Source of the DNA: Candidatus Omnitrophota bacterium
Lineage (GTDB): Bacteria > Omnitrophota > Gorgyraeia > 1-14-0-20-64-10
Assembly (NCBI GenBank): GCA_016201735.1
Contig: JACQCH010000011.1
Location: forward strand, 1,291 to 65,290
DNA: 64,000 nt
Reading direction: 5' to 3'
The notes beneath the pieces were generated by a model. It was not told the DNA's origin, searched no databases, and saw only the letters and a list, made by a program, of their open reading frames with translations. The number at the start of each line of letters is the position of its first letter. The first letter of the stretch is position 1. The position numbers and the translations under genes are program-made. Shown in pieces: positions 2,631-39,539 of the stretch.

Positions 2631-2666
2631 CTTTTCCTAACCGTCTGATATAGTGTCTGTTTCACG

Positions 2667-4200: not shown

Positions 4201-4202
4201 GT

Positions 4203-5982: not shown

Positions 5983-6571
5983 CCAGATGTTGGTACCGAT
6001 TGTCGTGGAGCAGACCGGAAGAGGGGAGCGGGCCTATGACATCTATTCCCGTCTGTTGAAGGACCGGATTATTTTCATCGGTTCCGGGATCGATGACTTG
6101 ATCGCCAACCTGATCATCGCCCAGATGCTGTTCCTTCAGATGGAGGACCCGCACAAGGACATCAACGTTTACATCAACTCTCCCGGCGGGATGGTGACGG
6201 CGGGGCTGGCGATCTACGACACGATCCAATTCGTCAAGCCCGACGTGGCCACCTACTGCATCGGGCAGGCCAGTTCCATGGGGGCGGTGCTGCTGGCCGC
6301 CGGCACCAAGGGAAAACGGTACAGCCTGCCGGAGGCCCGGATCATGATTCACCAGCCCTGGGGCGGGACGCAGGGGGCTGCGTCGGACATCTCGATCCAA
6401 GCGAAGGAGATCCTCCGGATGCGGGACCGGCTCAACGAGATCCTGGCCCGGCACACCGGCCAGCAGCTGGACAAAATTCAGAAGGACACCGACCGGGATT
6501 TCTTCATGTCGGCGAACGATGCCAAACAGTACGGGATCGTCGACGAGGTGATCGTGGGAAAGCAAAAATGA
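5969..6571 (+). CDS. clpP: ATP-dependent Clp protease proteolytic subunit ClpP
   Basis: Catalytic Ser/His motifs ([19 protein letters not shown]). 200 aa. Overlaps the tig stop. Confidence 0.95.
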
Positions 6572-13599: not shown

Positions 13600-16500
13600 A
13601 TGCGTTGGAAGAATCTTTTATTGACCTTTAAAGTGACAAATGCAAACTCCCCGATGAAGGCAAGCCCAAGGGCGTTCGTTTCCCTTCTTCTCATCCTTAC
13701 TTCACTCACCACCTGGACTGTTCCTTCCGGAGCCAGCCCTGAGCCCAGTCGAAGGGCCCTTCGCCAAACCCAGGAGAGCGAGCAGTCGGGTTCAGATCGC
13801 CAGCAACTCACCCAAGCCATCACCCGGGAATCCAATCCGCCTTCCCTCGCCGCCGGCCTGGAGGAGAAGTTCACCAGCTACAAGGAATTCCTGAATGACA
13901 AAAAAGAAGGACACCAACATCACCTAGATGAGCGAGAGAAAGGAAAGGTTTCTCCGGGGAGCATGATCTGGCATGATCTGCTGGATATCCAGATCATCCT
14001 TCCATTGCTGGGGCGTGCCGCGCCCAACTGGGCGAAGAAGCATAACGCCGATCTCATCGGGCTGCTTCAAGGTGCACTGATCCGCCTGACCGATTCCTAC
14101 CAGCAGTATTACAAACAGAGAGATCCTAATTCCCAGTCACAATGGAACGTGCGGGTGATCCAGGGAGGGAATCTCCGGTCCCTCTTCGAGAAGAAATTGG
14201 GATCAGCCACCAACATCAAATGGATTCACTCATTAGGGTATCCTGGACTGAGGGTGGAAACAGTTAGGAGTCTGCTGAATGACCAGCAGGTGGATTCGAT
14301 TCTCTTCGCCTTGCATGGAAACGATCCCCCCGAGGTTGTGGTTTTCGAAACGTCTTCTCATCTTATCGAGGGCGCCAAGAAGGGGGTCAGCGTACCCTCT
14401 TATGTGGAGTTAGGCAGGCATCTCCGGTCTCTCCAAGCTAAACCGACCGGTGGACGGGCGCTCAGTGCCTATAACGCGGCGCGGATTGAAGATGATAAAC
14501 ATAAGCCCCCTTCTTCAGCGGAACCTAGGGCCGCCTCGACTGTTGGACGGGGGGCCGGCGCACAGGGATCTTCCTCGCAGGGGCCTGCGGCTCCCCAACT
14601 GTCCGAACTGGAAAAACAATTAAACAGGGATCTTTTCTATCCCTCGGCCGGAGGAGATTTGAAAGGATCGGATGGTTTCTTCATCTTCAGACAGCGTTGG
14701 TGGAGATATCCATATCCGCAGCGGGAGCAGATCCTGAAGAGTTCTGGCGGTGAACTGTGGGGAATTCTCCAGCGCCGTTTCGGAATCGGGTCGACCTACG
14801 CCATGCAGCTTCTAGAAGGGGAAGAAGGGCAGAGACTTGGGCAGGGTTATGCTTTCGCCAGCAAGGATGAGGTTCGGATCTTTGTCCAGGACGTACTGCC
14901 AACCCTTCAATCCGCGGCCCAACAACTGGCCGAGAAAGTGAAAGGGGTAGAGGAGAACGAGCGGGAGGGGATCCGATCCAAAGTGTATCAAGAGACTGTG
15001 TCGGATATCCTTCCACGGATTGACAGGAACCTGAGAGATGACCAGGAGCTTGCGCTCGCAATCGGTTACCTGACGGAGCTCATCTTCACGGGAGAATATA
15101 AGGATTCCAGGGCGCTTACGGGGCTTGCAGAGGCCCTTTGGCAAGATTTCCAGAAACCCTGGAAACCGGCGCCGCCCGAATCCGCTGGGCCGCCCGCCAC
15201 GCCGGGCGCGACCCAGGCCGGGCTGGAGGAAGAGGTAAAGGTCCTCCATGGGCACAAAGGGCCGGTGCGGAAAGTGGCGTTCAACACAGGGAAGAGGAAC
15301 AGGGGTCTGCTGGCTTCGGCCAGCGATGGAGAGATTCGAATTTGGGATAGTAAAGGAACAGCTCGCCGGCCGGTCTTTAAGCATGAACCCGATGAACAGG
15401 TGTTGGTTGTGGCTTTCCGGCGGACCGGGAGCGCCGTGCTGGTGGTAGGCAATCGATCCGCCGTCAGCTGGGATGTTGGGAATAATATGCGGTTTCCAAC
15501 GAGGATTTTCTATCCTCCGGAGCTTCGGATTGACGCCGATTCCCTTCATCCAGACAGCATCGCGTTGTCGCCTGGCCGCACCTCGATGGTGATCGCTGGC
15601 AAAGAAGGTGCAATGGCCGTCATCCAGAATCTGGATCCGGATCGCAAGCTCAAAGGGTTAGATAAGCCGATGGGGATTCTGGGGCAACTTCAACCAGAGA
15701 AGGGGGCGGTGTTGAGTGTTGCTGTCAAGCCGGAGGATCCGGAGAAGGTGAGTCGGGGAAGATACATGGATGGCTGGGTGGCAGCCCTCGGCACCAGTAC
15801 AGGAACAGTGGAGTTATGGAAACTTCTAGAGCTTGCCGACCCCTTTCACAACGTCCAGATTCAGAGCAGGAGATTCTTGGTCCTCCAAGGTAACAGCGGC
15901 AAGATCATCAGTCTGGCCTTCGATCCCAGTTCGAAGGGAAAGATTCTGGCTGCCGGGGATGATCAGGGAAGAATTCGCATTTGGAATGCAATGAGGCGGT
16001 CGTTTCAGGAGATCCCTCTCGAGGAGAAAAAGGAGATTCTGGCTCTGACCTTCAGTCCCGATGGCAGAATCTTGGCTTCGGCTGGCGAAGCAGGGACGAT
16101 CCAATTCTGGGATGCCGTCACCGGCTGGCCCTTAGGATTCCGGCGCCCCAATGAAAATCAGCCGACAAAGATCTTGAGTCTTGCCTTCAACCTGGACGGC
16201 ACCCAAGTGGCCGCCGGCCGGGACGACGGCACGATTCTCATCGCGGGTGTTCCCGTCCCTCCTGTTCCCGCCGCCGGAATGGAGGAGAGAGAGAAATTGG
16301 AATGGCAACAGAGAATCGGGCAGGCGTTTAAGGGATGGGAAGCCCGGGGTTTGATTCGGTCGGCCGATCCCTTCGTGGGGGGCTTGCTGCAGACGCGACG
16401 GGAGGTCCAGAATGAAATCAATGAGTTAAGTAAACAACCCGAATATACATTGGCCTATAAGAGCTATAGACCATTCCGGCAGGCCCGATTGGGATTCCTG

Positions 16501-19500
16501 CAAACCCTCAGTTTTCTTCTAGAGGCCCTGGGCCAGGATCCATCGAAAAGTTCGGCTCGAATTATAAAAAGAAGTGAGCCGACCCTAGAGAAGACAGGAC
16601 TGGTTTGGTTTCGTCTTGGATTCCCCATTGATGGAAGAGAGTTCCAAGCGGTTCTTAGGTTCCATGTGGATGATACAGAATACCCCTATCTTTCAATCAA
16701 CATTCGTGGCCAGACCCAGGCTTTTAAGATCAAGACGATGCCTGATAAAACAAAACAAATTAAGATACCAACGCCCTATCTCCAATTCTATACCGATACC
16801 AGCAGAGCAAGATGGAGGAAAAACATCTACTATTTACCTGGATGCTTCAACAATCTTCCGGAAGGAGCGGAAGAGCCAGAAGTCTTGGAAGCTTTCCGCA
16901 ACTTCCAAAAGGGCCTGATTGAGGCAATCCAGAAATTGCCGTTGGCCCCTCCCGCCGCCGGAATGGAGGAGCCGCTGGATTCCGACGGGGCGTTCTGGAG
17001 ACTGGAGCAGTACGCCCAGAAGGAAGAGGTCGAGATCCGTCCCGCCAGCTTCTGGTTTGACAAGGCGGGCAGGCAGATGCATCGCCGGGTTCTTGAACTG
17101 CGGCGCTCGAAGGACCCGCATGCTCTTCCGGAACTGCTGAAAATCATGGATGATCCCAGTGTGCTGGATGACGTTCGGGTGGCGGCTGCCCGGGCGTTGA
17201 TTGGCATCCCGCTCCTTGACGGTTCCGATATCGAGACGGCGCTCGATGCGGTGGAACGGTTGAGCCGGCACAATGACCATCCTCCGCGCCCTGCGCCCGC
17301 TTTGGCGCTGTACGATCCGGGATCTCCGTTGTCGCAGAGGCGGAGCCGTTTCCGAAGGCAGTTGATCGGGGTGCGCAATCATCTTATCTCTCTCCTTCAG
17401 CAGGTTCCTCCAGGCCCAGGCCTCTCGCCGGATCAGATCTTCGAGCGGCTTTCTCCCCTTTTGCAACGGCCCCCCGTCAGGGTATTGGCGGTGGGCGTCG
17501 TGGGAGTGGCCGCCGGAAGAAACGGGATTCTCTCCGATGAAACCGGTCAGGTCTATGACCACTTTATCAGCCTGAGTCCGGTCAATCGCCTGCTGTTGCT
17601 TTCTTCCTTAGACGCGACGCAGCTCCACGAGGGCGTTTTAAACCGGCTGCCTAACTGGGCTCGGAAGGGAGCGATTCCGATTTATGTCAACGAGGAGGGG
17701 TCCTCAAAAGGACGTTTGTTTCTCCAATGGGTTGAGAAAGAGAGAATAGGCCCTTCGATGGCCCTTTTCATGGACGACGATCCTGAAAGTTTCAGGGTGT
17801 TTCCGAATTCGTGGCCCGGGACGCTGGTTTATCTCGGACGCTACGATCCAGAGCTTTCCCAACTTCGCCCCAATGTCATTCAGATCAGCCGGCCGGATGA
17901 GGGAAGACCATTTAACCGGGTCGAGATTGCGCGGATCGCCGCCCTGGTTGAGTTCGCCAAACAACGGTTCGCAGGGTCGGCAACTCTTCAAGCGGCCGCC
18001 TCGGGGAATGTGTCGGGTCAGCGGCCAGTGGAATTTCTCCTCTACCAGGCCCGTTTGACCGGACCCGCTGCCGAGGATTGGAGCCCGCTGAAGGCCGGTG
18101 CTTCGGCTCCGCTCGGCGCAGGTTTGGAAGAAGCCTTCGTCACGGGGCCGGCCAAAGGATTCACGACTAAAGTAGAACGGGTAATAGAAACAGGAATCCC
18201 CGTTGCTAAACGAAAGGTCGGGCGGCTGTTGCCGATGAAGACGGTCTGGGATTTGGCCGGGGCCACGATGACCGGAGGGGCCAACGGCCTGGAGGATCTG
18301 TCCGCGGAGGATTCTTCCTCGGCGAACCGGGTCATGGAGTGGGCCAATGATGGACTGCGTTGGTTGAATGTGCGTTCTTCCATTCCAGTCATCCAGCGGG
18401 TCTGGAAACGCCTTCAGGAGGAAGGCCGCAGGGTTCTTCCGGTCGAGATGAGGGCCAACCACGCAATGACTCTGGATTTTACCGATGAGGAGCCGGCGGT
18501 TCGTCTCGACACCACGGTGGCCTCCGAGCTGAACGGGCGGGAATTCAATGCCGGGCGGCCGCTTCTTTACGCGGTCGGCCTTTTCCATGAAGCGGCTATG
18601 GCGGCTGGGTTCACCCCTCGGGAAGCAATCCATCTGACGCTGGGGCTGTACCAGGGGATGACGGCCCAGGAGCGGCAGAATCTTCAGGCGATCCTTCGCT
18701 CTATCTACATTGATCATGGAAATACATGGGCCCTTTTCCTCCAGGATGCCTCCGACTCAAAGTCCGCAGATCTGAACCCCACTGAGTTTTCTGGAATGGA
18801 TACGCTGACGTTGGAAGAACGTTTGAATGAGGAACCTTCTTCATCCGCGCGCGGGCAGATCACGGCGATCCGGAATTATCGGGACAAATGGGTCTCCTGG
18901 CTGATGGGCCAACTTCTTATTGACCTGCCGTATGACCGGATTGCTTTCCGGCAGGCCATGGAGGAGGGCAATGTGGATGCCAGACGTCGGGCCGCCTACG
19001 AGGTGATTCGGGATTACGACCGTGATGTGGAGCAGGGTAACGCCGAGCGGATGAGCACCGTGGTTAGGGAAGAATGGCTTCCGGAGGATCTGCCGTATCC
19101 GGTCCTGGTCGGCGGCCGCGAGAGCCGGGCCTTCGGCAACCAGGCGCAGTTGTTCGCCAACAGCGCTTATGTTTTGAAGACGGCGGAGATTGTCCATGCC
19201 GCTCAGCTCCTTCTTGAAGTGGCTCGGGGCAAGGAACTGCTGGCGGAATTGGAGAAGATCGCCAATGCGGCTCCGATTTCGGCGCAGGAGGAATTGAGGA
19301 AAGCGGTTGGGCGAGTCAAGGAGTTGCTGGCCCACTTGGGACCGGGAGCGGACCGGATCCGGCAATTGGTGTTCGGACCCGGCAAGGTTGTTGCCTCAAC
19401 TCAGTACGCGGGCGCGCTCCAACAATTACGAGAAAACCTGGAAATCTTCCACAGCCAGGCGTCTAAGGTGATGGAGCAGGCGAAGGATCAGGTGGTCGCG

Positions 19501-22500: not shown

Positions 22501-25500
22501 ACGGTGGGGGACATCACCATTACCGTCGTGCCTGGAGTTTCCAGTGAGGATCTACTGGGCTTCAGCTCCGAGACAAAGGAACTGTTGGGAAATGTGGCGA
22601 CCCAGACGCAGGAACTGCTTCAGTCCAAGGGGATCTCCCCGGCGCAGATGAAGGCCGATGCCCAACAGCATTGGACATTCCCGCAGGAGTGGGTGCCGTT
22701 GAATGATCTTTCACCGGAAGAACAGAGAGGGTTGAAGGAGGCAGTCGCCGGCAAGATTCATCCGTTAGTTCTGCGGCTTCGGGGCCCCGGCGACAAATTT
22801 CTGGAGGATCTGCAAAGCCAGGATGTGGTGGTTTTCTCGGTCACTCATCCGGAAATTATGGCCTTGGACCCTGCCCACTTGAGGGACCTGATGCTGGAGG
22901 GGCACCCGAACAGCGCTTTGACGGCGCTGGACTTCGTCGCGCAGGGGCGCCACCGGGTCTGGTTCGACCGGGACATCATGAACTGGTACGCGGCGGGCCG
23001 GGGCGTTGATGAAAACGGCCAGCCGATCTTGAACTGGGAGGAACGGGATTCGAAGGGGCGCCAGGCGGTCTACCGGGCGTTTGGTTTCGGGACGGATGAT
23101 TACAGACCTCTTTTGGGAACCGGTCTGCGGGAAGAAGTGGTTCGCCAGGAGCTCCGGGCCAGAGAAATGTTCAAAGGTTTCGAACAGGTGGCCGGCGCCT
23201 CCGAGGAGGATCTGCCGCGTGCCGTCCAAGCTTTCCAGGCCCGCTTCGGAGAATGGTTCGAACGGAACCAGATGGTCACGGAGGCGGATCTAGCCATCCA
23301 GTACGAACAGCAGATGCTGTCGAATCGCCGTTGGAAGCCGCGGGACGAGGCCGTTCGGGAAGCCCTGGTGGACATCACGACCGGCCTGCCGGCCGAGAAA
23401 TTCGGCAAGGACCATTGGCTGGCGACGGGCGGGATGTTCCTCTTGAATGGGGCCCCGCAGGAGCAGATCGACCGGGTCTTGGCGATCGTTCATAAAGCGC
23501 AACAGCGGATGACGGCTCCTGCCGCCGCTGGGCTGGAAGAATCGAACCCTCGGGTGGCCCTCCTCATCAAGCCGCGGCTGACTGCGGCGGCCATTCGGTT
23601 CGCCGAACGAAAAGGAGAAATGTTCTCCGTCAAGGCCAGCGAGTCTGACGCGGTGAAAGCGGTGCAGCGGCGGAAAGGGTTGGCTCTGGAAGCGACCCGG
23701 CTGGCGGCGCTCAAGGCCCGCCAGGAAGGGTTCAACTCCGTCGAGCCGATCACTGAGGCGGCGCAGATTCCCCAGGCGCTCGTTTCCGCCAGGGAACAGA
23801 TGGATCAGATGCTCGCTGAACTTCAAACCCGCACCTCGGCTTCATCAATCCACCAGCACGTCGGCCGCGTCATGGGAACGACTGTTCAGGTTCTTCGTCG
23901 TCTGGCTGAGGAGCTGATCTCCGATGAAAAGGAACGAGAACGAGTTCAAGATCAGGTCAAGAAATTATGTCAGGGCCGGGAGATAGATCTTAAGACCTGG
24001 AATATTTTTGGAGGCAGTTATGAGGACCATGGAATTCTGGCCCGGCTCTTTGAGCTGGCCGGCCCATCTCGGCGAGACGAGGTGACGGCGGCAATGGAGC
24101 TTCTTTATCTAAGCAGCGTTTTGGAAAGAACGGCCAGTTTTCTTGTCCTTCCGGCAGAAGAAGTGGATGAGCGGCTTTTGTTGCGGGCGCTGGCTGGATT
24201 TTTTGCCGAGACAATCGACGATCATTTCTACGAATACAATCCCTGGGCGTTTGACCCGAAGAGGGGACTGACCTTTAAAGATTTCTACGATGAGCTCGGC
24301 GCATTGAAGCCCGAGCGGGCGGAGGAGCTTTATCAGGTTTCCTGGGAACACCACCGGACGCTTTATCGATATGTCCGGCACTTGATTCTCACCAAGACGG
24401 AGGCCAAAAACCTCTCTATCGGAGACCAATATGATTTGTTTGGGCAGATTCGGTTGGGGCAGAGTGTTGCGCAAGATGAACTGATAGCGCAGGCGATCGG
24501 CGCCGGCGCCCCGGGTCGCTATGAGCGGCTCTGGCGGGCTTACAACCAGACCAGGGAAATGGTTTTCATCCGCAACGACGGGTTCACCCTGCCGATGGTC
24601 TTCGAAAAAATGGATCCGGAGGATCCCGAGATTCTCGACGTCCGGCATCGGGTGAACCATGCCTTCCTCGCCCCGGTGGGGCGCACTCATTACTCCCGGG
24701 CTTTGATGGAGGCCGGCCAACTCGGCGAGAATCTTTTCATCACCCGAGATGGGGAGATGGCGACACCAGCCGGGGCAAAGGGGCCGGTGCTCCAGATCCG
24801 GGACGCCCAGTTCTGGCTGACCGAGTGGCAATATCGCCAGGCCCTGATCCGCTGCCGGGGCATGAATCCTGCCGACGCGGACCGTCAGATTGCCGAGGAT
24901 CAAAGGACAGGCCGATTGACTCCGAAGGGGATCCGGGCCGCGGCCCGGTTCACCCGGCCGGTCACCATCGGATCGGTGGTTCCCATGCACCATCATTACC
25001 TGGAGCCGGAGTTGGTGGCGGCTGGTTATCCGGCGACCGATAAATCTCCGGTTCTGTATAAAGTCACCTACGACAAGTCGATCTATCCCGAAATCTACAA
25101 TCCCGCCGAGCGGACGGGAGTTCACCTGCCGGATGAAATCGACTGGTACCGGGAGGATACCGAGGCAGCGGCGTCCGCCCCGGAGGCCAAGCAGGCCATC
25201 GCCGTGGCCTTAAGGCCGTTTGCCCGGAAACACGGGATCATCGTCGCCAAGGGTTCCGCCGAATCCGGGGCCAGGAATTTTAAGCGGTTTGACTTTGTAG
25301 ATGAGCAGGGGAAACAATTCACTCAGCAGGAATTTGAAAAGCGCCTAGCCGAGGCGGCGGAATTCATTTATCAGGTCTCCACCGGGCAGAATGTGACGAT
25401 CCAGCGGGCGATCGTTGTGACGCCGATTGCCTGGATGGATCCGAAGGCGGTGCAGGAGTTCGTTGAACGGCAGATTCGGGAATGGGCGGTACCCGTCAAT

Positions 25501-28500
25501 CTCCAACGGCATCCCAAGAGCTGGGTTTACGGGACGCTGAGGATTATCCCTTCCGCCGGGATGCCAAAGGATCTGAATAATCTGGATAATCCCGTCAACT
25601 GGCAGCCTGCTTATCCAATCAGCTTGAACAGTCTTCAGGTGGCGACCAACGTGGGGCGGCAGGGCACCCTTGAGATGTTGACGCCGGGGATGGTCCGTCC
25701 CGAATTCCGTGAGACGTTCATCCCGGACCTGGAGGCGGCGGGCCGGGCCGCCATGGCGGCGACGGCCAAATACGGGAAGAAATACTGGGACGAGGTATAC
25801 GCGCCGGAGTACATGAAGAAACATGGTGTCGCCCCGCCCGAATTCGACGCGACCGGCGTCCCGTACTGGTGGCCCCGCAACCTCATGCTTGACTTTCTGC
25901 CGGAGCCGGTCTGGGGACGTGACGGCCAAGAGGTGCCTGGTGCCAGGGTGATCGATGTGATTCCCGGAGATCCAAAGAAAGGGACTCAAGCTCGGTTTAC
26001 CCTGCAGGACCCGGAAGGGAACGTCATCGAGAATGGACAAGTTCTCCGGTTCACCTTCTGGTTGTTGGAGCCCAACGTCGGGATCGGTCTCTGGGACCGT
26101 TATTGGAAACGGGAAGAAGTTCACGAAAAGGCCGCCGCCAAGACAGAGAAGCGTCCAGTCGACTGGTCGCGCGTTGGGGTGAGCGACCGGATTGTCTTGA
26201 GCAACTATTTGGCTGTTGGAGAGGCGTTCCTGAAAGCGAAATTTGGGGGTGACTACTTTGGACCGGCCGGGCTGCACCGGGGCGGACCGGATCAGCCTTC
26301 TTCCCCGACTGGAACATCTCCACGGCCGATTGCTCTATGGAATCCTCCTAGCGAGCCCATGTCCCCGCCCGTCGAGGTTCTGTCGGAGCGAGCGGATGAT
26401 AGAGTACAGGAACTCCTTCCGTTTCCCCTGACCCTGGCTGTGGTGGTCGGCAAAGAAACCCTCATGAACCATCACCTTTATCCTTGGATCGTCGGGGCGC
26501 AGGGCCGGGCGGTCAACGTGATCGGTGTCCATGAGGATTGGCTGACTTCCGACGAGCGAGCCGCGCGCTTGATGGCGTTCGACCCTAAGACTCGCCGGTT
26601 GATCGAGTTTTCCGTAGATCAGCCGGTTCCGGTAACCGATGCTTTTATCGTAGAGCTTCCCCAGTCGGATGAAGTGCCTCACCATCAGAGGTTGAGTGAA
26701 CGTCTTAAGAAAGTCGGCATCCACGTGATCAATCTCGCCGGCCCTTCAAAGCAGCGGGCGGATGATAAAAGCTGGCTCCGGCGGCAGATGGACCGTCCGA
26801 TGTCACCGGACCCTGTTGCGGTGCCCCAAAGCATGTTTGTTTCTCGGGGGACTCCAGAGTCGAAGTTTCAGGGGAATCTGTCCTACTTTGCCAAGTGGAG
26901 TCCTTTGGGTTTGGTGATACAGCCTAAGGAAGGAACAACCGAAGGAAAGGGAGTGGAATGGTTCGCTCCGGATGACCGGGCTGGGCAACTCCGTTATCTC
27001 AATCAACTTATCGAACAGCAGGACGCGATGGTAAGCACCTTTCGTGGAAATGTGACGTATCGGGATCGGCCGCTGGTACTTCGGTTCAACGTGGCGGCAG
27101 GTGAAGTCACCTCCGCCTCCGCCGTGGTAGGACCCGAAGGGAGTCGTATCGCTTCTTTGGGCAGGGGCGGTAAAGGTGAAACGGAATTGCTGGGCACGGT
27201 TCTCCAAGGGCTTCAGGATCTTGAGGGAAGACCGGTTCCTGTAACGGCAGAAGATTGGGCTCGACTGGAAACGGCTGCTCGAATCGCCGCAGAAAAAGTG
27301 GATCTGCCGATCATCGGCATTGATCTGGTTCTGGAAAGAGATCCTGCAGGGGTTCTCCGAGGGGTGGTTCTCGAGGCCAACGCCCGGCCCGGTACCTTGA
27401 TTTTCGGTGAGAGAGTGGAATTTCCAGAGGATGGTCCCATCGAAAGCCGCCCCGCCGCGCCGGTCGGCCCCGCTTTCTGGAATTCCATTGGGATCCCGGA
27501 GGCGGAAGTCCCTGTCTCAGCGCAGTCCGCCGGCCTGGAGGAACAGAGGAGCTTTACGATCCGTCAATGGCAGACGATCATATCCAATCCAGACCGGAGC
27601 GGACTCACAGCCCTTGTGGGAAAAATGGTACCGGCCGACCAAGTGGATAAAGAGCTCAAGCATGTAAGAGACCTCGTCGAGCAGGCAGCGGAGAGGAAAG
27701 ATCTATTCAATTTGGAGGACAAGACCTCTCTCGCCTATGCTCCGGGGCGCGTCCGCTTCTACTCGGGCCATACCGATTTCCGTGGGTTGGGAGGGCAGAC
27801 CATTAATGCGGCTGTGCAGCATGGAATCTGGATGCTTGTCCAGTTAACGGAGGATGGCCGGGTGATCGCGGAGAATCTGGATCCCCGATACCGACCTCTT
27901 CGATTTGGCATGACGGACGATGATGCCTTGCCTCCAGAAGGGATTCGGCGGATCCGTCCCGATTGGCTCAACTGGGTTGAGCCGAGGGCGATTTCCGACC
28001 AGTGGGAAGGCCTCTTAAAAGGGACTTTAGCATTTATTCGGACGGAAATTCTAAATTCCGAGAACATCCGGCGCAGTACGCTGGTCGGGAAAGGAGTCCG
28101 CCTCCTAGTTTCGGAAACCGACCTCCCAACAGGGAAGGGCTTCAGCTCTTCTTCGGCGCTGCCGGGAGCGTTCGGCCATGCCTTGAATGCGCTCTTACCG
28201 CTGGAAGCCGGGTTGAGCCCTTCGGATTTGGACCAACTGGATTACGCGAATTACTTGGTGGGAGGTCGAGCGGGCACGGCAGATTTGACAGCGATCAACG
28301 CAGGCCAACTCGGCAAGATCTCAGTGCTCTGGTCTTTCCCGGATCGTTTGGAGGAGGAACCGGTCGGTCTGCCGGAGCGATTCCGTTTCTTCATCGTCGA
28401 CTCCGGTCTGACCAGGCTGGATGATAAGACTCAACCCGTGGAGATCAGAAATTACGCGGCCTACATCAAGTCAATGACCGGAATGGGCTACGCCCTGGGG

Positions 28501-30447
28501 GCCCTTTGGCTTCGGCATTTGGCACGCGCCGATCCGACCCTCGCTCCTCTTGAACAGGTGCTGTTGGCCTCGGGTCCGCCGGCGCAGCCGTTTGGGCTCT
28601 TGCGGGAATTGACGGAGGCTGGAACTTTGATCGGACCCGAGTACGTTTCGATGGTTGGAGGGAAGGATTCGGCTGCTCGGCGGGTTTTTCTTCAACGGTT
28701 AATGAATCGGGTTCCCAACGATTGGACACTAGGGCGACTCTACGAAGAGATCCATGAAGAGGATTTAAGGCCGGAGATGGATCCTTTATTGGCAGGATTT
28801 ACTCCGCTGGGAGCCCATCGTCTTCCCAGTGCACTTGACTCCTTGCGGCTGCAAACTGTTGTCCCATTGCGCCAGATGGTTTCGTATGGGATTCAAGAAG
28901 TGGAGCGGGGCCTGGCTTATGTTAAGGAAGCCCAAGCAGGCGATGCAAGTGGGATCCTCCAACTGATGAGGGACGCCCAGCGTGGAGATCGCGCGGTCTG
29001 GAATTTTCAAGGGGATGGGAGTCTTGCCCTGACTTCTTGGGGAGAGCGGAATCCTGAAGAGGCTTTCTTCCGCAGTCTTCCGGAGATCGATCGAATGATC
29101 GACCAATTCCAGGAGGCTCTTGATGCCCGTTATGGGCCGTTGTCTGTTGCGGGGCGCATTACGGCCGCAGGACTGGGAGGTGCGATTGCGATTGGCACTA
29201 CAGCGGAAGCTTATGAGGAGTCGAAACGTTATTGGAGTCAACAGGGATTGGAGGTGATCGAAGTCCAACCCAGTGGAGGGGCAAGAGCCGTCCATCTGCC
29301 AGCCATGGCTGCTGCCGGGTTGGAGGAAGTTCAAGTGGTTGCCCTTTCGGTGGAGACGACAAAGACCCGATTAAATCAAGTGGCGCAGACACTGGCAAGC
29401 AGCCTGCAATTCCCTGCCCATTTGCTTCAGCCGGCTCTGGATGGGGAATATTACCCGATTTCTGCAGAGGAAATGCTTTTTAAACTCCTTGGGGAGCTGT
29501 GGAGCAACGCCAGAGAACATGTCCCTGTCGAGTTCCAATCCACTGCAAAAATCGAACTCTTGGTTGTCCAAGAACCGATCAATCCCTATCTTCTCCAGAG
29601 GAAGTTGGTTATTCGGTACGCCGATTATAATCCCAAACCCTTTGCCGTTGATATCCGTGGAGCGGTAGAAACACGTGGGGTTACGGAAAAACCATCAGGG
29701 ACTTCTCAAGGGGTTGGCTTGAAGTTGATCCGGGAGATGATCGGAATTCCTAAGGGAGCTTCTATGATGGTTGAATCGACAGATGTCGATGGTGCGCGCA
29801 GGCGTTTTGAGTACCGCCGCTTGGGTGGAACAGTGGAAGAGCTCCCTTCAACTCGTCCCCAAGGGACGGAAATCGTTATTCAGTTGCCGGCAGGTAGCGT
29901 CTCCTCACGCAGTCTCTCGCTGAGAGCGTTGGCCGAACAGATCCGTCATCAACTCTCTCCCCTCTCGGCCGCTGGGCTGGAGGAAAAAGCCGTTGTCAAA
30001 GGCCAGAAGCCGGTGGTTCCGACCCAGGAAATCTCCAAGCTGCTGCAGTTTCCTCCCGGTTCCGAACAGCGCTGGCAGGTGCACATCTTTGATCCGGAGA
30101 ATGCCGATGTCGGTCGGCTGGTCGCTGCCCTGATCCAGGATCCGGTGGTGATCATCGCCAGGGATGAGAAACAGGAAAAGGCCCTTCTCAATTCCGGTTT
30201 TGTCGGGGACGACCGGATCGTAGTGCGTCTGGATCTTCGCAGCAACGACATTGTGAAGGCCCGGGAATTTTCGGCTAATCTTTATCGAGCGCTGTTTTCC
30301 CCGCAGTATTACACGGCTGCTCAGCGGCAGAACCTGGTGGTTTGGTTGGCGAGAATCTTGGAAATCTACAACATTCCGGACTCCATCTTATCTCTGGACG
30401 GTGCTCAAGATAAGCTCAAGTTCTTGGAAGCTCTTCGTGCGGCTTAA
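13600..30447 (+). CDS. giant mosaic multidomain protein 1 (5615 aa; signal peptide, WD40, HEAT-like, UGDH-like, ATP-grasp, GHMP-kinase-like and GHKL ATPase modules separated by a recurring A-A-G-L/M-E-E junction motif)
   Basis: Uninterrupted 16.8-kb ORF, far longer than the longest antisense artefact ORF in this window (2.3 kb), with multiple recognisable domain signatures. The probable true start is ATG 13654 (MKASPRAFVSLLLILTSLTTWTVPSGA, a Sec-type signal peptide). Confidence 0.8.
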   Translation: MRWKNLLLTFKVTNANSPMKASPRAFVSLLLILTSLTTWTVPSGASPEPSRRALRQTQESEQSGSDRQQLTQAITRESNPPSLAAGLEEKFTSYKEFLNDKKEGHQHHLDEREKGKVSPGSMIWHDLLDIQIILPLLGRAAPNWAKKHNADLIGLLQGALIRLTDSYQQYYKQRDPNSQSQWNVRVIQGGNLRSLFEKKLGSATNIKWIHSLGYPGLRVETVRSLLNDQQVDSILFALHGNDPPEVVVFETSSHLIEGAKKGVSVPSYVELGRHLRSLQAKPTGGRALSAYNAARIEDDKHKPPSSAEPRAASTVGRGAGAQGSSSQGPAAPQLSELEKQLNRDLFYPSAGGDLKGSDGFFIFRQRWWRYPYPQREQILKSSGGELWGILQRRFGIGSTYAMQLLEGEEGQRLGQGYAFASKDEVRIFVQDVLPTLQSAAQQLAEKVKGVEENEREGIRSKVYQETVSDILPRIDRNLRDDQELALAIGYLTELIFTGEYKDSRALTGLAEALWQDFQKPWKPAPPESAGPPATPGATQAGLEEEVKVLHGHKGPVRKVAFNTGKRNRGLLASASDGEIRIWDSKGTARRPVFKHEPDEQVLVVAFRRTGSAVLVVGNRSAVSWDVGNNMRFPTRIFYPPELRIDADSLHPDSIALSPGRTSMVIAGKEGAMAVIQNLDPDRKLKGLDKPMGILGQLQPEKGAVLSVAVKPEDPEKVSRGRYMDGWVAALGTSTGTVELWKLLELADPFHNVQIQSRRFLVLQGNSGKIISLAFDPSSKGKILAAGDDQGRIRIWNAMRRSFQEIPLEEKKEILALTFSPDGRILASAGEAGTIQFWDAVTGWPLGFRRPNENQPTKILSLAFNLDGTQVAAGRDDGTILIAGVPVPPVPAAGMEEREKLEWQQRIGQAFKGWEARGLIRSADPFVGGLLQTRREVQNEINELSKQPEYTLAYKSYRPFRQARLGFLQTLSFLLEALGQDPSKSSARIIKRSEPTLEKTGLVWFRLGFPIDGREFQAVLRFHVDDTEYPYLSINIRGQTQAFKIKTMPDKTKQIKIPTPYLQFYTDTSRARWRKNIYYLPGCFNNLPEGAEEPEVLEAFRNFQKGLIEAIQKLPLAPPAAGMEEPLDSDGAFWRLEQYAQKEEVEIRPASFWFDKAGRQMHRRVLELRRSKDPHALPELLKIMDDPSVLDDVRVAAARALIGIPLLDGSDIETALDAVERLSRHNDHPPRPAPALALYDPGSPLSQRRSRFRRQLIGVRNHLISLLQQVPPGPGLSPDQIFERLSPLLQRPPVRVLAVGVVGVAAGRNGILSDETGQVYDHFISLSPVNRLLLLSSLDATQLHEGVLNRLPNWARKGAIPIYVNEEGSSKGRLFLQWVEKERIGPSMALFMDDDPESFRVFPNSWPGTLVYLGRYDPELSQLRPNVIQISRPDEGRPFNRVEIARIAALVEFAKQRFAGSATLQAAASGNVSGQRPVEFLLYQARLTGPAAEDWSPLKAGASAPLGAGLEEAFVTGPAKGFTTKVERVIETGIPVAKRKVGRLLPMKTVWDLAGATMTGGANGLEDLSAEDSSSANRVMEWANDGLRWLNVRSSIPVIQRVWKRLQEEGRRVLPVEMRANHAMTLDFTDEEPAVRLDTTVASELNGREFNAGRPLLYAVGLFHEAAMAAGFTPREAIHLTLGLYQGMTAQERQNLQAILRSIYIDHGNTWALFLQDASDSKSADLNPTEFSGMDTLTLEERLNEEPSSSARGQITAIRNYRDKWVSWLMGQLLIDLPYDRIAFRQAMEEGNVDARRRAAYEVIRDYDRDVEQGNAERMSTVVREEWLPEDLPYPVLVGGRESRAFGNQAQLFANSAYVLKTAEIVHAAQLLLEVARGKELLAELEKIANAAPISAQEELRKAVGRVKELLAHLGPGADRIRQLVFGPGKVVASTQYAGALQQLRENLEIFHSQASKVMEQAKDQVVAASTEGVSRRLPQENLTVGFRETQQRLTEFADKGGRIADAMDQLWKAILQGESYAAAYSVLMQRPSPTGSEKFKANELEEKPEQEEVLRKLTRLGGQNLYMSPSYDWVAEATDIIEAAPLFIYERTIEVDEHTVTVFEVDQEGLEQTVRQMADYWALNIDKTMDSEHLALAREIVVRTNPALMAAAAELMKQGLPEEAAHRRAFQQMEDSGKREVLLNRVALVAAWIASEFDRRIEEVERFTEEQWRKQHFIDRVEALRALLLGDSREPIYTGFCKECISRSQSKAETLRTETDRLQGIVLAQRRPLPAFHMLTTEAPGLVEGFIQVVLEEEMALRNLLRGEGRRLGLDLEQEVKDGMKKYADRIQILGWKVIREFGYEPIVEQYEAQGFSRERAIQQVIGDHLSLQEELARLAVLVEMAEVEAGPGYILDPEDPDHPLVTGRIGKPGRSPDDNYTKSWTHHFEQEAFEQVWQRNKLDPDLAQRITQLRQDGRTEVEAIDGAIEESPLYSQEIKDTVRWLARRRALENLDERHPELHLQDRVRRWYRDHTALARTTARRETVSAHSLHPKMLDPRYAYCSGTIQETKDGRLRPTGGRKRYHLIYANSRVNLGKGEKESVEVLPQWVGVTDPLAAAHGKRFYELINFNPQIRTIVETENLKVSENQWMAMVRAIRNVQAYFVDRLGRGDIEDLAYQFDQRGGLTAAALKQGESYQAGPTAGYCIPKDILFKLFVATHQDAAKLSQIGVPKHLHRGVIQMAVELAAAQENFETVMEWESWAALQLLSQKALEKRFGLDGAKSLGKHFGRYISVTGGIPVFHVTKIRQLLELTGVPSPLLARLQDLHSALWSNWAERKLTLPAEQVNRSVVFTMTRQIPEAAKEAKALNPTAGIVDPDQLRVHFYGTYKGDENYPSQPDVRFAWIMRAVMILSGFGKEVALSLDEEGQILARLAWEGFRPDSNDPEDQKVRRYLAKELAGVPDFELPRDQAIVNRLKEAFPVHTTVGDITITVVPGVSSEDLLGFSSETKELLGNVATQTQELLQSKGISPAQMKADAQQHWTFPQEWVPLNDLSPEEQRGLKEAVAGKIHPLVLRLRGPGDKFLEDLQSQDVVVFSVTHPEIMALDPAHLRDLMLEGHPNSALTALDFVAQGRHRVWFDRDIMNWYAAGRGVDENGQPILNWEERDSKGRQAVYRAFGFGTDDYRPLLGTGLREEVVRQELRAREMFKGFEQVAGASEEDLPRAVQAFQARFGEWFERNQMVTEADLAIQYEQQMLSNRRWKPRDEAVREALVDITTGLPAEKFGKDHWLATGGMFLLNGAPQEQIDRVLAIVHKAQQRMTAPAAAGLEESNPRVALLIKPRLTAAAIRFAERKGEMFSVKASESDAVKAVQRRKGLALEATRLAALKARQEGFNSVEPITEAAQIPQALVSAREQMDQMLAELQTRTSASSIHQHVGRVMGTTVQVLRRLAEELISDEKERERVQDQVKKLCQGREIDLKTWNIFGGSYEDHGILARLFELAGPSRRDEVTAAMELLYLSSVLERTASFLVLPAEEVDERLLLRALAGFFAETIDDHFYEYNPWAFDPKRGLTFKDFYDELGALKPERAEELYQVSWEHHRTLYRYVRHLILTKTEAKNLSIGDQYDLFGQIRLGQSVAQDELIAQAIGAGAPGRYERLWRAYNQTREMVFIRNDGFTLPMVFEKMDPEDPEILDVRHRVNHAFLAPVGRTHYSRALMEAGQLGENLFITRDGEMATPAGAKGPVLQIRDAQFWLTEWQYRQALIRCRGMNPADADRQIAEDQRTGRLTPKGIRAAARFTRPVTIGSVVPMHHHYLEPELVAAGYPATDKSPVLYKVTYDKSIYPEIYNPAERTGVHLPDEIDWYREDTEAAASAPEAKQAIAVALRPFARKHGIIVAKGSAESGARNFKRFDFVDEQGKQFTQQEFEKRLAEAAEFIYQVSTGQNVTIQRAIVVTPIAWMDPKAVQEFVERQIREWAVPVNLQRHPKSWVYGTLRIIPSAGMPKDLNNLDNPVNWQPAYPISLNSLQVATNVGRQGTLEMLTPGMVRPEFRETFIPDLEAAGRAAMAATAKYGKKYWDEVYAPEYMKKHGVAPPEFDATGVPYWWPRNLMLDFLPEPVWGRDGQEVPGARVIDVIPGDPKKGTQARFTLQDPEGNVIENGQVLRFTFWLLEPNVGIGLWDRYWKREEVHEKAAAKTEKRPVDWSRVGVSDRIVLSNYLAVGEAFLKAKFGGDYFGPAGLHRGGPDQPSSPTGTSPRPIALWNPPSEPMSPPVEVLSERADDRVQELLPFPLTLAVVVGKETLMNHHLYPWIVGAQGRAVNVIGVHEDWLTSDERAARLMAFDPKTRRLIEFSVDQPVPVTDAFIVELPQSDEVPHHQRLSERLKKVGIHVINLAGPSKQRADDKSWLRRQMDRPMSPDPVAVPQSMFVSRGTPESKFQGNLSYFAKWSPLGLVIQPKEGTTEGKGVEWFAPDDRAGQLRYLNQLIEQQDAMVSTFRGNVTYRDRPLVLRFNVAAGEVTSASAVVGPEGSRIASLGRGGKGETELLGTVLQGLQDLEGRPVPVTAEDWARLETAARIAAEKVDLPIIGIDLVLERDPAGVLRGVVLEANARPGTLIFGERVEFPEDGPIESRPAAPVGPAFWNSIGIPEAEVPVSAQSAGLEEQRSFTIRQWQTIISNPDRSGLTALVGKMVPADQVDKELKHVRDLVEQAAERKDLFNLEDKTSLAYAPGRVRFYSGHTDFRGLGGQTINAAVQHGIWMLVQLTEDGRVIAENLDPRYRPLRFGMTDDDALPPEGIRRIRPDWLNWVEPRAISDQWEGLLKGTLAFIRTEILNSENIRRSTLVGKGVRLLVSETDLPTGKGFSSSSALPGAFGHALNALLPLEAGLSPSDLDQLDYANYLVGGRAGTADLTAINAGQLGKISVLWSFPDRLEEEPVGLPERFRFFIVDSGLTRLDDKTQPVEIRNYAAYIKSMTGMGYALGALWLRHLARADPTLAPLEQVLLASGPPAQPFGLLRELTEAGTLIGPEYVSMVGGKDSAARRVFLQRLMNRVPNDWTLGRLYEEIHEEDLRPEMDPLLAGFTPLGAHRLPSALDSLRLQTVVPLRQMVSYGIQEVERGLAYVKEAQAGDASGILQLMRDAQRGDRAVWNFQGDGSLALTSWGERNPEEAFFRSLPEIDRMIDQFQEALDARYGPLSVAGRITAAGLGGAIAIGTTAEAYEESKRYWSQQGLEVIEVQPSGGARAVHLPAMAAAGLEEVQVVALSVETTKTRLNQVAQTLASSLQFPAHLLQPALDGEYYPISAEEMLFKLLGELWSNAREHVPVEFQSTAKIELLVVQEPINPYLLQRKLVIRYADYNPKPFAVDIRGAVETRGVTEKPSGTSQGVGLKLIREMIGIPKGASMMVESTDVDGARRRFEYRRLGGTVEELPSTRPQGTEIVIQLPAGSVSSRSLSLRALAEQIRHQLSPLSAAGLEEKAVVKGQKPVVPTQEISKLLQFPPGSEQRWQVHIFDPENADVGRLVAALIQDPVVIIARDEKQEKALLNSGFVGDDRIVVRLDLRSNDIVKAREFSANLYRALFSPQYYTAAQRQNLVVWLARILEIYNIPDSILSLDGAQDKLKFLEALRAA
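15232..16260 (+). other. WD40 beta-propeller module of giant protein 1
   Basis: Repeated WD-like units (LHGHKGPVRKVAF…SASDGEIRIWD; ILAAGDDQGRIRIWNA; ILASAGEAGTIQFWDAVTG; QVAAGRDDGTILIAG). The module is bounded by junction motifs at 15217 and 16267. Confidence 0.7.
21652..21675 (+). other. UDP-glucose/GDP-mannose dehydrogenase-like catalytic Cys motif (AGYCIPKD) in giant protein 1
   Basis: Matches the GGYC(L/I)PKD active-site signature of the NDP-sugar dehydrogenase family. Confidence 0.5.
26700..27430 (+). other. RimK/GshB-like ATP-grasp ligase module in giant protein 1
   Basis: …SRIASLGRGGKGE… and IGIDLVLERDPAGVLRGVVLEANARPG resemble the RimK R-x-N-x-x-x-GG and C-terminal (E/V)NxxPG ATP-grasp motifs. 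Confidence 0.55.
28126..28161 (+). other. GHMP-kinase ATP-binding motif (PTGKGFSSSSAL) in giant protein 1
   Basis: Matches the Px(G/S)xGLGSSAA signature of GHMP kinases (galacto-/mevalonate-/homoserine kinases). Confidence 0.55.
29460..29760 (+). other. GHKL (histidine-kinase-like) ATPase module in giant protein 1
   Basis: N-box-like LGELWSNAREH and G2-box-like SQGVGLKLIREM. The module lies between the junction motifs at 29311 and 29968. Confidence 0.55.
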
Positions 30448-30640: not shown

Positions 30641-30859
30641 TTATTGGTCGATCCACAGAACCGCTGCAATCAGGGCTACATACATTATCAACCCCAACAA
30701 CAAGATTCGCAACCGGAATGTCTGTCCCAAGACATTGCTCAGCACCCAGGCAACCAAGATGGCGTTGCCCGCATTCAGAAGAGCTTTCGCCAGATTCTCC
30801 TGTTGTTTGCGAGTGAGTCTTACGCTCATAGGGTCATTGTGCATGGTATGAATATACAA
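30641..30859 (-). CDS. possible small membrane protein (72 aa, C-terminal TM helix)
   Basis: ORF in the lower-GC inter-giant spacer. C-terminal hydrophobic segment LLLGLIMYVALIAAVLW. Divergent from giant ORF 2. Confidence 0.3.
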   Translation of the reverse strand: MYIHTMHNDPMSVRLTRKQQENLAKALLNAGNAILVAWVLSNVLGQTFRLRILLLGLIMYVALIAAVLWIDQ

Positions 30860-39532: not shown

Positions 39533-39539
39533 AGCGACC

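Follow-up and report, generated by a model that had tools for sequence, protein, structure and literature searches.

A pentapeptide placed at the module boundaries of two giant multi-enzyme ORFs: a probable cutting or docking site

Two adjoining giant ORFs, G1 and G2, carry the pentapeptide [A/S/T/G]-G-[L/M]-E-E at boundaries between their modules, with nine copies in G1 and six in G2, a total of 15 where composition alone would give 0.10 (no more than 2 across 2,000 shuffles). The pentapeptide occurred nowhere else across the six frames of the window (the whole 64-kb stretch of DNA that was analysed) and was absent from 17.4 kaa of other long + strand ORFs. Probably serving for cutting or docking, the motif could reveal where giant bacterial proteins split. 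We tentatively read G1 and G2 as Sec-exported polyprotein precursors that are processed at it, a reading whose chances we put just short of even. Multi-enzyme giants of Omnitrophota have already been described (10.1101/2023.11.21.568195; 10.64898/2026.06.07.730766), and the junction motif is absent from the texts of both preprints. Both also leave open whether such chains stay whole or are cut, and a confined, boundary-placed motif offers a concrete site at which to test this.

In the proposed scheme, each precursor would begin with a cleavable signal peptide, followed by a short conserved propeptide of the pattern (T/A)LRxQ ... xGLEE, continue with a string of modules and end in a shared C-terminal domain of ~140 aa. 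The modules would be self-contained and joined by Pro/Ala/Ser-rich linkers holding the pentapeptide, which would be recognised after export by a site-specific endoprotease, thus freeing the modules as separate proteins. Sugar enzymes would be among those freed, namely a GHMP sugar kinase, an NDP-sugar-dehydrogenase-like protein, an FBP aldolase/phosphatase and an HAD phosphatase, together with ATP-grasp ligases, WD40 and HEAT-like scaffolds and a receiver domain. Cutting at the motif, the cutting enzyme and the place where the products would act are what we infer; what we observed are the ORFs, their modules, and the numbers of the motif, its boundary placement, its peptide-level conservation and its confinement to leader-bearing ORFs. 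The features of the two ORFs are as follows.

13654..30447, + strand: G1, giant ORF (ATG at 13654; 5,597 aa)
13654..13866, + strand: leader as read from the sequence, with the Sec-type signal peptide MKASPRAFVSLLLILTSLTTWTVPSGA followed by ALRQTQ... and by AGLEE at 13852-13866, the first copy of the motif
13867..15216, + strand: module of about 450 aa, no Pfam, NCBIfam or PDB match
15217..15231, + strand: AGLEE before the WD40 module
15217..16272, + strand: WD40 beta-propeller module, Pfam WD40 3.6e-26
16273..16287, + strand: AGMEE
16273..16956, + strand: module of 228 aa, no matches (Pfam, NCBIfam)
16957..16971, + strand: AGMEE
16957..18117, + strand: module with a weak HEAT-repeat signal (17092-17286), HEAT_2 E=0.0022, below the cut-off
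18118..18132, + strand: AGLEE opening the next module
18118..26286, + strand: module homologous to a standalone ~2,650-aa family of several phyla
21295-21675, + strand: NDP-sugar-dehydrogenase-like core within the ~2,650-aa module, with GYCIPKD at its end (21652)
23527..23541, + strand: AGLEE within the ~2,650-aa module, where it interrupts a variable linker
26407..27528, + strand: ATP-grasp ligase module, GshB/Ddl/RimK-like, GRGG at 27160 and EANARPG at 27373
27529..27543, + strand: AGLEE before the GHMP kinase
27529..29313, + strand: GHMP sugar-kinase module, galactokinase-like, PTGKGFSSSSAL at 28126
29314..29328, + strand: AGLEE
29314..29970, + strand: module claimed earlier as a GHKL ATPase, no matches, model pLDDT below 50
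29971..29985, + strand: AGLEE opening the C-terminal domain
29971..30444, + strand: C-terminal domain common to these giant ORFs, by alignment, pLDDT 70-86
30905..38008, + strand: G2, second giant ORF of like design (ATG at 30905; 2,367 aa), with a signal peptide
31019, 34511, 35261, 35891, 36686 and 37538, + strand: G2 junction motifs
33185-34438, + strand: G2 FBP aldolase/phosphatase, preceded by a family-less region
34580-35116, + strand: G2 HAD phosphatase, followed by two modules without a family
36728-37006, + strand: G2 receiver domain
37538-38005, + strand: G2 C-terminal domain

The giant ORF named in the preliminary description proved real, and every peptide quoted from it lies where it had been placed. 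An upstream in-frame ATG at 13600 gives a G1 of 5,615 codons, one unbroken ORF running over 13600..30447 (+), and a GGGAGAG stands upstream of the start ATG of G2 at 30905. A public contig from a separate assembly (Logan SRR12113409, 22,198 nt) encodes an identical 5,597-aa protein; therefore, G1 is not an assembly or frameshift artefact, and this contig together with intact orthologues ruled out an assembly artefact or a pseudogene. The chromosomal setting of both ORFs consists of housekeeping neighbours. Many families tile each polypeptide and none is dominant: WD40, HEAT-like, dehydrogenase-like, ATP-grasp and GHMP in G1, and FBP aldolase/phosphatase, HAD and receiver in G2. The modules belong to sugar-phosphate and nucleotide-sugar metabolism. 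Except for WD40, no homologues of G1 residues 1-1,506, including the first module (13867..15216), or of G2 were found in the other collected loci.

Most of the enzyme and scaffold modules suggested from the translation gained support. The WD40 propeller was matched as four Pfam repeats and by many beta-propeller families. The GHMP kinase scored above the Pfam cut-off (GHMP_kinases_N 2.5e-5) and matched PDB entries 9ulx (2.1e-5) and galactokinase 1pie (2.6e-4). In these alignments it has the PGR arginine, motif II P.GKG.SSS.AL, motif III T.AG.GG and the Asp aligned to that of GalK 'GILDQ'. No substrate was assigned to it, because its score against the NCBIfam galactokinase TIGR00131 (2.2e-11) is far below the equivalog cut-off. 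For the dehydrogenase that had been read from AGYCIPKD, G1 alone gave no Pfam match, but the profile of a 16-member family matched NDP-sugar dehydrogenases up to the catalytic Cys (PDB 3g79 4.6e-7; 4a7p 1.2e-4). Pfam UDPG_MGDP_dh was matched by 14 of the 16 members (best 3.2e-8), and the alignment of the 16 sequences showed no variation at the GYC.PKD residues Cys, Lys and Asp or at a Lys and an Asn upstream; none of the members matched UDPG_MGDP_dh_N or UDPG_MGDP_dh_C, and the PDB matches ended at the central domain. By eye, there is also a stretch that seems to resemble 'AFKP..DD.R.S' of the C-domain. The catalytic residues of the GHMP kinase and of the dehydrogenase-like core are intact, indicating that these modules are not decayed remnants.

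The RimK-like ATP-grasp assignment was supported by weak Pfam matches (ATPgrasp_ST in all five homologues, RimK in two of five, and YheCD, also weak) and by a match to the cyanophycin synthetase ATP-grasp (1.3e-4 over GID.V...E.NA.PG). With a low-confidence model as query (mean pLDDT 54), the 50 Foldseek PDB matches listed were all ATP-grasp ligases or of the ATP-grasp fold (GshB 1gsa 1.9e-8; RimK 5zct 3.4e-7), at TM-scores of only about 0.2. The HEAT repeats stayed a weak signal under the cut-off, and the GHKL ATPase was not supported: its stretch had no Pfam, NCBIfam or PDB sequence match and, with N-box-like and G2-box-like strings present, lacked the D.G.G box. Single-sequence PDB searches of the ATP-grasp, GHKL-like and first modules returned nothing significant. 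Of the two roles once offered for the chain, a precursor of several enzymes is now favoured, because a conserved junction pentapeptide separates the modules, whereas an assembly line holds only loosely; a thiotemplate-type assembly line was ruled out, as carrier, condensation and ketosynthase families are missing from G1 and G2. The statement that such a fusion had not been described is out of date, given the Omnitrophota giants of the two preprints.

The placement of the motif counts in favour of cleavage. Recognised domains start about 6-35 residues after it (WD40 +6, receiver +15, HAD +24), and in one standalone ~2,650-aa protein the aligned N terminus begins about 24 residues past it. P, S, A, T and Q are over-represented among the 12 residues upstream of it, in linkers rich in Pro, Ala and Ser. 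Position 1 takes A, S, T or G and position 3 only L or M, and this L/M alternation with flanking small and acidic residues would fit selection of the protease-pocket type. Other placements count against cleavage. The junctions between the ~2,650-aa module and the ATP-grasp and between the family-less region and the FBP aldolase/phosphatase carry no motif; some relatives have additional copies inside the C-terminal domain; and one G1 motif (23527..23541) interrupts a protein that other phyla make as one chain. This last motif is found at the aligned position in L006, an exported relative, and amid matching sequence in others, and is missing from the standalone orthologues.

The motif was also examined in 18 such ORFs of nine loci (59,367 aa), the named records among which are Omnitrophota, and 68 copies were found against 1.04 expected, about 65-fold. 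The nearest locus, L006 (58% identity), is a Candidatus Omnitrophota MAG, and P0003 is Candidatus Omnitrophica. In L006, motifs flank the aligned blocks at equivalent module boundaries, three of them at the aligned position, with differing flanking residues. The peptide is kept among orthologues that are only 46-62% identical and whose linkers are otherwise unalignable, and the junctions look alike across genomes whose cargo modules vary greatly. Zero motifs were found in 12 standalone orthologues of the ~2,650-aa module (30,600 aa) and in the other ORFs of four of the additional loci. Among long proteins with the ATP-grasp module, all six complete ones bearing the conserved leader have 3-9 motifs, and the complete leader-less ones have none; P0008, P0019 and P0004 have motifs without a leader, their N termini beginning inside modules.

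A Sec-type leader opens those ORFs whose N terminus is intact, and the ~140-aa C-terminal domain closes most of the complete ones. The leaders of G1 and G2 share 35-37% identity (E 8e-5 to 2e-4), and those of the related ORFs follow the same pattern. The C-terminal domain is predicted to adopt a four-stranded parallel alpha/beta fold, and its part of the model of G1 5239-5615 gave only generic Rossmann-like matches in a fold search, all at E>0.04. A 64%-identical copy stands behind a different module in P0006, and this fragment was the only return of a C-terminal-domain profile from 5.8 billion proteins, because the domain is too short and divergent for a database of that size. NCBIfam sorting-signal models matched neither leader nor C-terminal domain.

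Alternatively, the chain may stay uncut, as an exported or surface-tethered multi-enzyme scaffold whose motif is bound by a partner or acts as a conserved hinge opening each module; the WD40/HEAT modules, the C-terminal domain or an export or chaperone factor would be the possible binders. We consider this somewhat unlikely. In L039, P0022 and P0024 the ~2,650-aa protein, ATP-grasp and GHMP kinase form one motif-less chain, and therefore these domains can work fused. No protease for the chain was detected in the window, motifs right behind the signal peptide and within the C-terminal domain are odd release sites, and one preprint handles Omnitrophota multi-enzyme giants as single membrane-associated proteins (10.64898/2026.06.07.730766). 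A docking motif, however, need not be confined to module boundaries in Pro-rich linkers, and several motif-rich relatives (e.g. P0005) have no WD40/HEAT, which therefore is not a general motif receptor.

[quoted passage not shown] This would suit enzymes that require ATP or cytoplasmic metabolites, and a receiver and any kinase whose normal substrates are found in that compartment; moreover, almost half of the long Omnitrophota proteins have been read as membrane-anchored with cytoplasmic domains (10.64898/2026.06.07.730766). Nevertheless, as read from the sequence, the leaders combine a basic n-region, a short h-region (about 15-18 residues) and a small-residue (AxA-type) site, which is the pattern expected of cleaved Sec peptides on an exported chain, and a second hydrophobic segment above the scan threshold is absent. 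In G1, the leader has a basic n-region, an h-region of about 16 residues and a cleavage-type site of small residues (Gly-Ala), and no hydrophobic segment further inside the chain exceeded the threshold, which agrees with the 'secreted-looking' chain of the preliminary description.

The motif codons vary synonymously (GCC/GCA/GCT/GCG; GGC/GGG/GGA/GGT; CTG/TTG/ATG; GAG/GAA), indicating constraint on the peptide and not on the DNA, and a DNA-level cause was ruled out on this ground. It is thus very improbable that the motif is a footprint of gene building, a recombination or cassette junction with no present protein function: widely differing cargo between similar junctions and a G+C-rich 15-mer of limited variation would fit it, but all synonymous codon choices occur, the peptide is retained where linkers do not align, and the strict L/M at position 3 with A/S/T/G at position 1 points to selection on the peptide.

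If the cleavage reading is right, a cutting enzyme is needed, and a secreted subtilase encoded beside the polyprotein gene in two related loci is a candidate. Its S8 gene lies directly 3' of the polyprotein gene in L034 and in L035/L036 (Peptidase_S8 3.5e-46 and 5.1e-37); these two loci have the fewest and most degenerate motifs, which counts against cleavage. A tblastn search with the subtilase gave no match in the 64-kb window. No peptidase Pfam match was found in G1 or G2, a large part of the chain having no family assignment, nor among the precomputed families of the relatives, and HExxH was absent from nine of these chains. The ClpP (5969-6571) and the M50/PDZ protease (45738-46820) of the window were set aside for their housekeeping contexts (tig-clpP and cdsA-dxr-M50 protease-ispG, respectively).

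Given that several modules need ATP, the freed products possibly act outside the producer's periplasm, for example in a host or prey cell. In a periplasm it is hard to see what would supply ATP-dependent enzymes with energy or serve a receiver as partner, a point that weighs against release there. A bolder proposal, which we regard as unlikely, is that one Omnitrophota clade sends out entire sets of modules (sugar-activating enzymes, ligases, scaffolds and signalling units) as pentapeptide-cut Sec polyproteins, which would parallel viral polyprotein processing in a cellular organism and whose ATP-dependent products would act outside the producer's cytoplasm, most plausibly in or on a host or prey, as modular metabolic-takeover effectors with rapidly exchanged cargo. 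Were cutting true, this would be a rare case of a cellular organism expressing ordinary metabolic enzymes as polyproteins, and it would sharpen the puzzle of why bacteria thought to live on other cells export ATP-dependent enzymes. The motif can be used for searching termini in metaproteomes, for splitting giants before structure prediction and, with leader and C-terminal domain, for finding members.

Viral polyproteins, cut by 3C-like or subtilisin-like proteases, likewise yield many mature proteins from one ORF with a short, conserved site at every junction, and small residues plus Glu/Gln surround their scissile bonds. Unlike them, G1 and G2 lie on a cellular chromosome, have no detected protease module in the chain and would be processed after export. 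MARTX toxins, which bacteria secrete and which reach about 5,200 aa, carry interchangeable effector modules, which are separated by cuts at Leu residues in unstructured inter-module segments (PMC2900308, PMC5218395). In contrast to these, the export signal of G1 and G2 is an N-terminal Sec leader with no sign of type I secretion, their modules are housekeeping-type metabolic enzymes instead of known toxins, and no segment of either matched the Pfam families of the MARTX cysteine protease domain or of the RTX-type repeat blocks that MARTX toxins have at both ends at E<=0.1. Neither the motif string nor bacterial polyproteins yielded anything relevant in a full-text search of the literature.

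The closest relatives of the central module are standalone ~2,650-aa proteins from Omnitrophota, Latescibacterota, Gemmatimonadaceae and delta-proteobacterial and Myxococcales MAGs, which are orthologues of G1 across its residues about 1507-4230 (identity 30-36%, spanning >90% of the length) and share many invariant residues with it, including GYC.PKD. In low-GC, Asn-rich sequences, such a protein is fused to ATP-grasp and GHMP kinase, giving chains of ~3.9 kaa that keep the module order of G1. Unlike G1, both kinds lack signal peptide, junction motif and C-terminal domain.

The Omnitrophota giants are tiled with sugar-metabolism enzymes, HAD hydrolases, HATPase, receiver and HEAT/WD repeats (10.1101/2023.11.21.568195; 10.64898/2026.06.07.730766). 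West-Roberts et al. reported proteins of >30,000 aa and stated that their cleavage points were unknown, which blocked analysis (10.1101/2023.11.21.568195), and the 'multi-enzyme metabolic cluster' class was catalogued from 10 kaa up (10.64898/2026.06.07.730766), a threshold below which G1 and G2 fall (5.6 and 2.4 kaa). Neither preprint mentions the junction motif, the conserved leader or the shared C-terminal domain, and the terms cleav-, linker, motif and polyprotein do not appear anywhere in the text of 10.64898/2026.06.07.730766. In contrast to those giants, G1 and G2, as read from the sequence, are of the 'SP-only' type, without transmembrane helices and without C39, S8, SecA or dockerin domains. 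Both preprints meet the same puzzle, namely whether the chains are cut and why metabolic enzymes stand outside the cytoplasm. G1 and G2 resemble these giants in a phylum that is probably the same, in many unrelated enzyme families per chain behind an N-terminal signal peptide, and in their content of sugar metabolism including FBPase (PGM in related loci), HAD, receiver and WD/HEAT.

G1 (13654..30447, + strand) lies in a single unbroken + strand ORF, 13600..30447, which counts 5,615 codons when started at its first ATG; the preliminary description used the ATG at 13654, which gives a protein of 5,597 aa. The frame is not an artefact, because a public 22-kb contig from a separate assembly (Logan SRR12113409) yielded the identical 5,597-aa protein, and every peptide quoted in that description was found in its place. 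The adjacent giant ORF, G2, has a good ribosome-binding site and is built on the plan of G1 with different cargo. On both flanks lie common housekeeping genes of bacteria, every one on the + strand: upstream are trigger factor, ClpP, class-V aminotransferase, SerA, PurA and H+-pyrophosphatase; downstream, HepT toxin, peptidoglycan-binding and OmpA proteins and GH57 branching enzyme, then CdsA, Dxr, M50/PDZ protease, IspG, ProS, RimP, NusA and IF-2.

13654..30447, +, G1
18118-26286, +, ~2,650-aa module of G1
29314..29970, +, G1 module claimed to be a GHKL ATPase
29971..30444, +, C-terminal domain of G1
30641-30859, -, small ORF of up to 72 aa between G1 and G2 (gap of 457 nt)
30905..38008, +, G2, 2,367 aa
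38042-38922, nucleotidyltransferase-like ORF (by motif only) and HepT (Pfam 2.9e-18)
39014-40247, +, peptidoglycan-binding protein and OmpA-family protein

The C-terminal part of the small ORF includes a long hydrophobic stretch that might cross a membrane twice, and sigma-70-like promoter matches lie on its strand at 30879-30843; should it be real, G1 and G2 are transcribed as separate units. Toxin-antitoxin pairs adjoin giant genes, as in the window, or stand between them, as do PrlF-like and PIN genes in a related locus (L043:4229-4432 and 7475-7930). The genes 3' of giant ORFs are alike in several loci (MBL-fold hydrolase, BatD-like protein, then OmpA or a PLP-dependent enzyme; L031:15106-16376, L032:22584-24035, L043:19853-20997), and the corresponding place in the window holds the peptidoglycan-binding and OmpA-family genes.

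The preliminary description missed a pentapeptide, [A/S/T/G]-G-[L/M]-E-E, which occurs nine times in G1, six times in G2 and nowhere else in all six frames of the 64 kb. Composition predicts about 0.10 copies, and none of 2,000 shuffles contained more than 2. Each copy sits in a linker enriched in Pro/Ala/Ser/Thr/Gln, a few residues before a domain start (WD40 at +6, receiver at +15, HAD at +24), and about 24 residues past such a junction motif lies the point where the N terminus of a standalone ~2,650-aa protein aligns, in one case. Codons vary synonymously among the copies; thus, it is the peptide that is conserved.

When the ~2,650-aa module was used as query, with one genome per species, 25 loci were collected. 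In 24 of them, from MAGs labelled Omnitrophota, Latescibacterota, Gemmatimonadaceae, delta-proteobacteria and Myxococcales, no junction motif occurred and the gene was standalone wherever complete; 12 standalone orthologues (30,600 aa) contained zero copies. Only in the closest, a Candidatus Omnitrophota MAG with 58% identity, was the module part of a giant ORF (at least 6,113 aa, nine motifs), preceded by a second giant ORF with five. In the aligned parts its motifs occupy boundaries equivalent to those of G1, within different linkers. Further searches yielded more such loci, often with two or three tandem giant ORFs, and all named records were Omnitrophota. Pooled over 18 ORFs from nine loci (59,367 aa), 68 motifs were counted versus 1.04 expected, and other ORFs in four of the additional loci had none; the last residue is relaxed to A, S, Q or T in some relatives. 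Among long proteins with an ATP-grasp module, all six complete bearers of the leader ...R(L)SAW(I/V).(I/L)QAL... carry three to nine motifs, complete leader-less ones carry none, and the remaining motif-bearing entries have non-leader N termini that start inside modules. The motif is restricted to leader-bearing ORFs.

G1 and G2 each begin with a putative Sec-type signal peptide, after which come ALRQ(T/S)Q and the first junction motif; the two leaders share 35-37% identity, and no internal hydrophobic segment passed the scan threshold in either protein. The signal peptides of G1, G2 and related loci (L006, L031, L035, L041-L045) are unusually alike for Sec signals, with the pattern ...SAW(I/V).(I/L)QAL... 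and a Gln within the hydrophobic core, and a (T/A)LRxQ stretch is conserved before the first motif; this likeness hints at a dedicated recognition step. Most complete motif-bearing ORFs close with a shared ~140-aa domain directly after the last motif (alignment A4), and one related protein (P0006) carries a 64%-identical copy of the G1 domain behind a different module. A four-stranded parallel alpha/beta fold is predicted for the G1 domain (pLDDT 70-86), and structure searches gave it no specific match. The end residues of the shared domain (G1 30424-30444, G2 37985-38005 and relatives) are alike (...LRAA, ...IRSA, ...LGVQA, ...LGIQA, ...LALQA, ...LETQM) and could form a recognition tail; some relatives have an extra motif inside the domain or in the last 15 residues. 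The domain may also occur outside the exported class, as the long relative P0098 (4,341 aa), which lacks leader and motif, ends ...EFLRAA and has a stretch resembling it.

The architecture first described for G1 is real, and the domain calls made for it mostly stand. The WD40 propeller is solid (Pfam 3.6e-26), as is the GHMP kinase (GHMP_kinases_N above cut-off), which in alignments to PDB 9ulx (2.1e-5) and galactokinase 1pie (2.6e-4) retains the PGR arginine, motif II, the catalytic Asp and motif III and looks active; its score falls far under the galactokinase equivalog cut-off. The AGYCIPKD peptide, read as an NDP-sugar dehydrogenase site, lies within a stretch (G1 residues about 1507-4230) that has its homologues in a rare family of standalone ~2,650-aa proteins, and that reading holds at family level only: G1 alone gave no Pfam match in this region, a 16-member profile matched NDP-sugar dehydrogenases through the catalytic Cys (3g79, 4.6e-7), and 14 of 16 members matched Pfam UDPG_MGDP_dh. 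Within GYC.PKD, Cys, Lys and Asp do not vary, and the flanking NAD- and UDP-binding domains were not detected in the family. Catalytic residues are intact in two G1 modules, the kinase and the dehydrogenase-like core. This family (window 18118-26286; L007-L030; P0001, P0002) is rare and strongly conserved, and its invariant residues are numerous; MAGs from several phyla carry it as a standalone gene, and the dehydrogenase-like core is its only recognisable part. The RimK-like ATP-grasp gained support from weak profiles (cyanophycin synthetase 1.3e-4; among five homologues, ATPgrasp_ST 5/5, YheCD 4/5, RimK 2/5) and from a low-confidence model, for which the PDB matches listed were all ATP-grasp ligases or ATP-grasp-fold proteins, including GshB (1.9e-8), Ddl and RimK (3.4e-7). 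HEAT repeats gave a weak signal below cut-off (E=0.0022), and neither sequence searches nor the model bore out the GHKL ATPase.

In G2, an unassigned region is joined to a class V FBP aldolase/phosphatase (Pfam 9e-50; NCBIfam 6.8e-45); the further modules are a HAD phosphatase (2e-18), whose DxDxT-type motif is intact, two unassigned ones and a receiver domain. Except for WD40, homologues of G1 residues 1-1,506 and of whole G2 were absent from the other loci collected. Cargo differs widely, and relatives bear other modules (GlmS-like SIS/amidotransferase, phosphoglucomutase I-III, MobA-like nucleotidyltransferase, hexapeptide transferase, PIG-L deacetylase, ROK and GHMP kinases, and long unassigned stretches); what recurs throughout is sugar-phosphate, amino-sugar and nucleotide-sugar metabolism.

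Our leading interpretation, held at slightly under even chances, is that G1 and G2 are polyprotein precursors: the chain would first be exported through Sec, and a specific endoprotease would then act at the junction motif. A protease site is suggested by the alternation of L and M beside small and acidic residues, as a protease pocket would select, and MARTX toxins, cut at Leu within unstructured linkers between effectors (PMC2900308), offer a bacterial precedent. No protease module was found in the G1/G2 chain. In two related loci the gene of a secreted S8 subtilase, which has an N-terminal prodomain of fervidolysin type and a tail resembling a coiled coil, lies directly 3' of the polyprotein gene (L034:10793-12550; L035:16040-17887, also L036), making it a candidate for the cutting enzyme; these two loci have the weakest motifs, and the 64-kb window contains no subtilase homologue.

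Rather unlikely is an uncut scaffold with the motif as binding site or hinge, for which it speaks that the central three modules exist as motif-free single chains. These are ~3.9-kaa, low-GC, Asn-rich, low-complexity proteins (L039, GC 0.32; P0022, P0024, P0011-P0015, P0027) with the ~2,650-aa protein, ATP-grasp and GHMP kinase in G1 order; by composition they look eukaryotic (amoeba-like). Since they lack signal peptide and motif, the three-module fusion is older than, or independent of, the exported form. A membrane-anchored chain that stays cytoplasmic is improbable, and a recombination footprint is very improbable given the synonymous variation and long-term retention of the motif.

The motif makes whether and where these giant bacterial proteins are cut directly testable, and the value of the finding lies there. 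A MARTX identity was ruled out: G1 and G2 have no CPD and no RTX repeats, and carry a Sec leader instead. The claim that such a fusion was undescribed proved only partly right. One preprint describes Omnitrophota giants tiled with metabolic enzymes, with FBPase, aldolase, PGM, TPI and GPI domains (10.1101/2023.11.21.568195). Another, which covers proteins from 10 kaa upwards, defines a "multi-enzyme metabolic cluster" class containing HAD, HATPase, receiver, PGM and HEAT/WD, finds signal peptides or transmembrane helices in 94% of its catalogued long proteins, and meets, for much larger proteins, the puzzle that G1 and G2 also pose, namely the place where exported ATP-dependent enzymes would act (10.64898/2026.06.07.730766). 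We found no description of the leader, junction motif or C-terminal domain in either, and in the text of the latter cleav-, linker, motif and polyprotein do not occur. G1 and G2 are therefore relatives of an already described kind of giant protein, from which they differ in being smaller and in having a signal peptide only.
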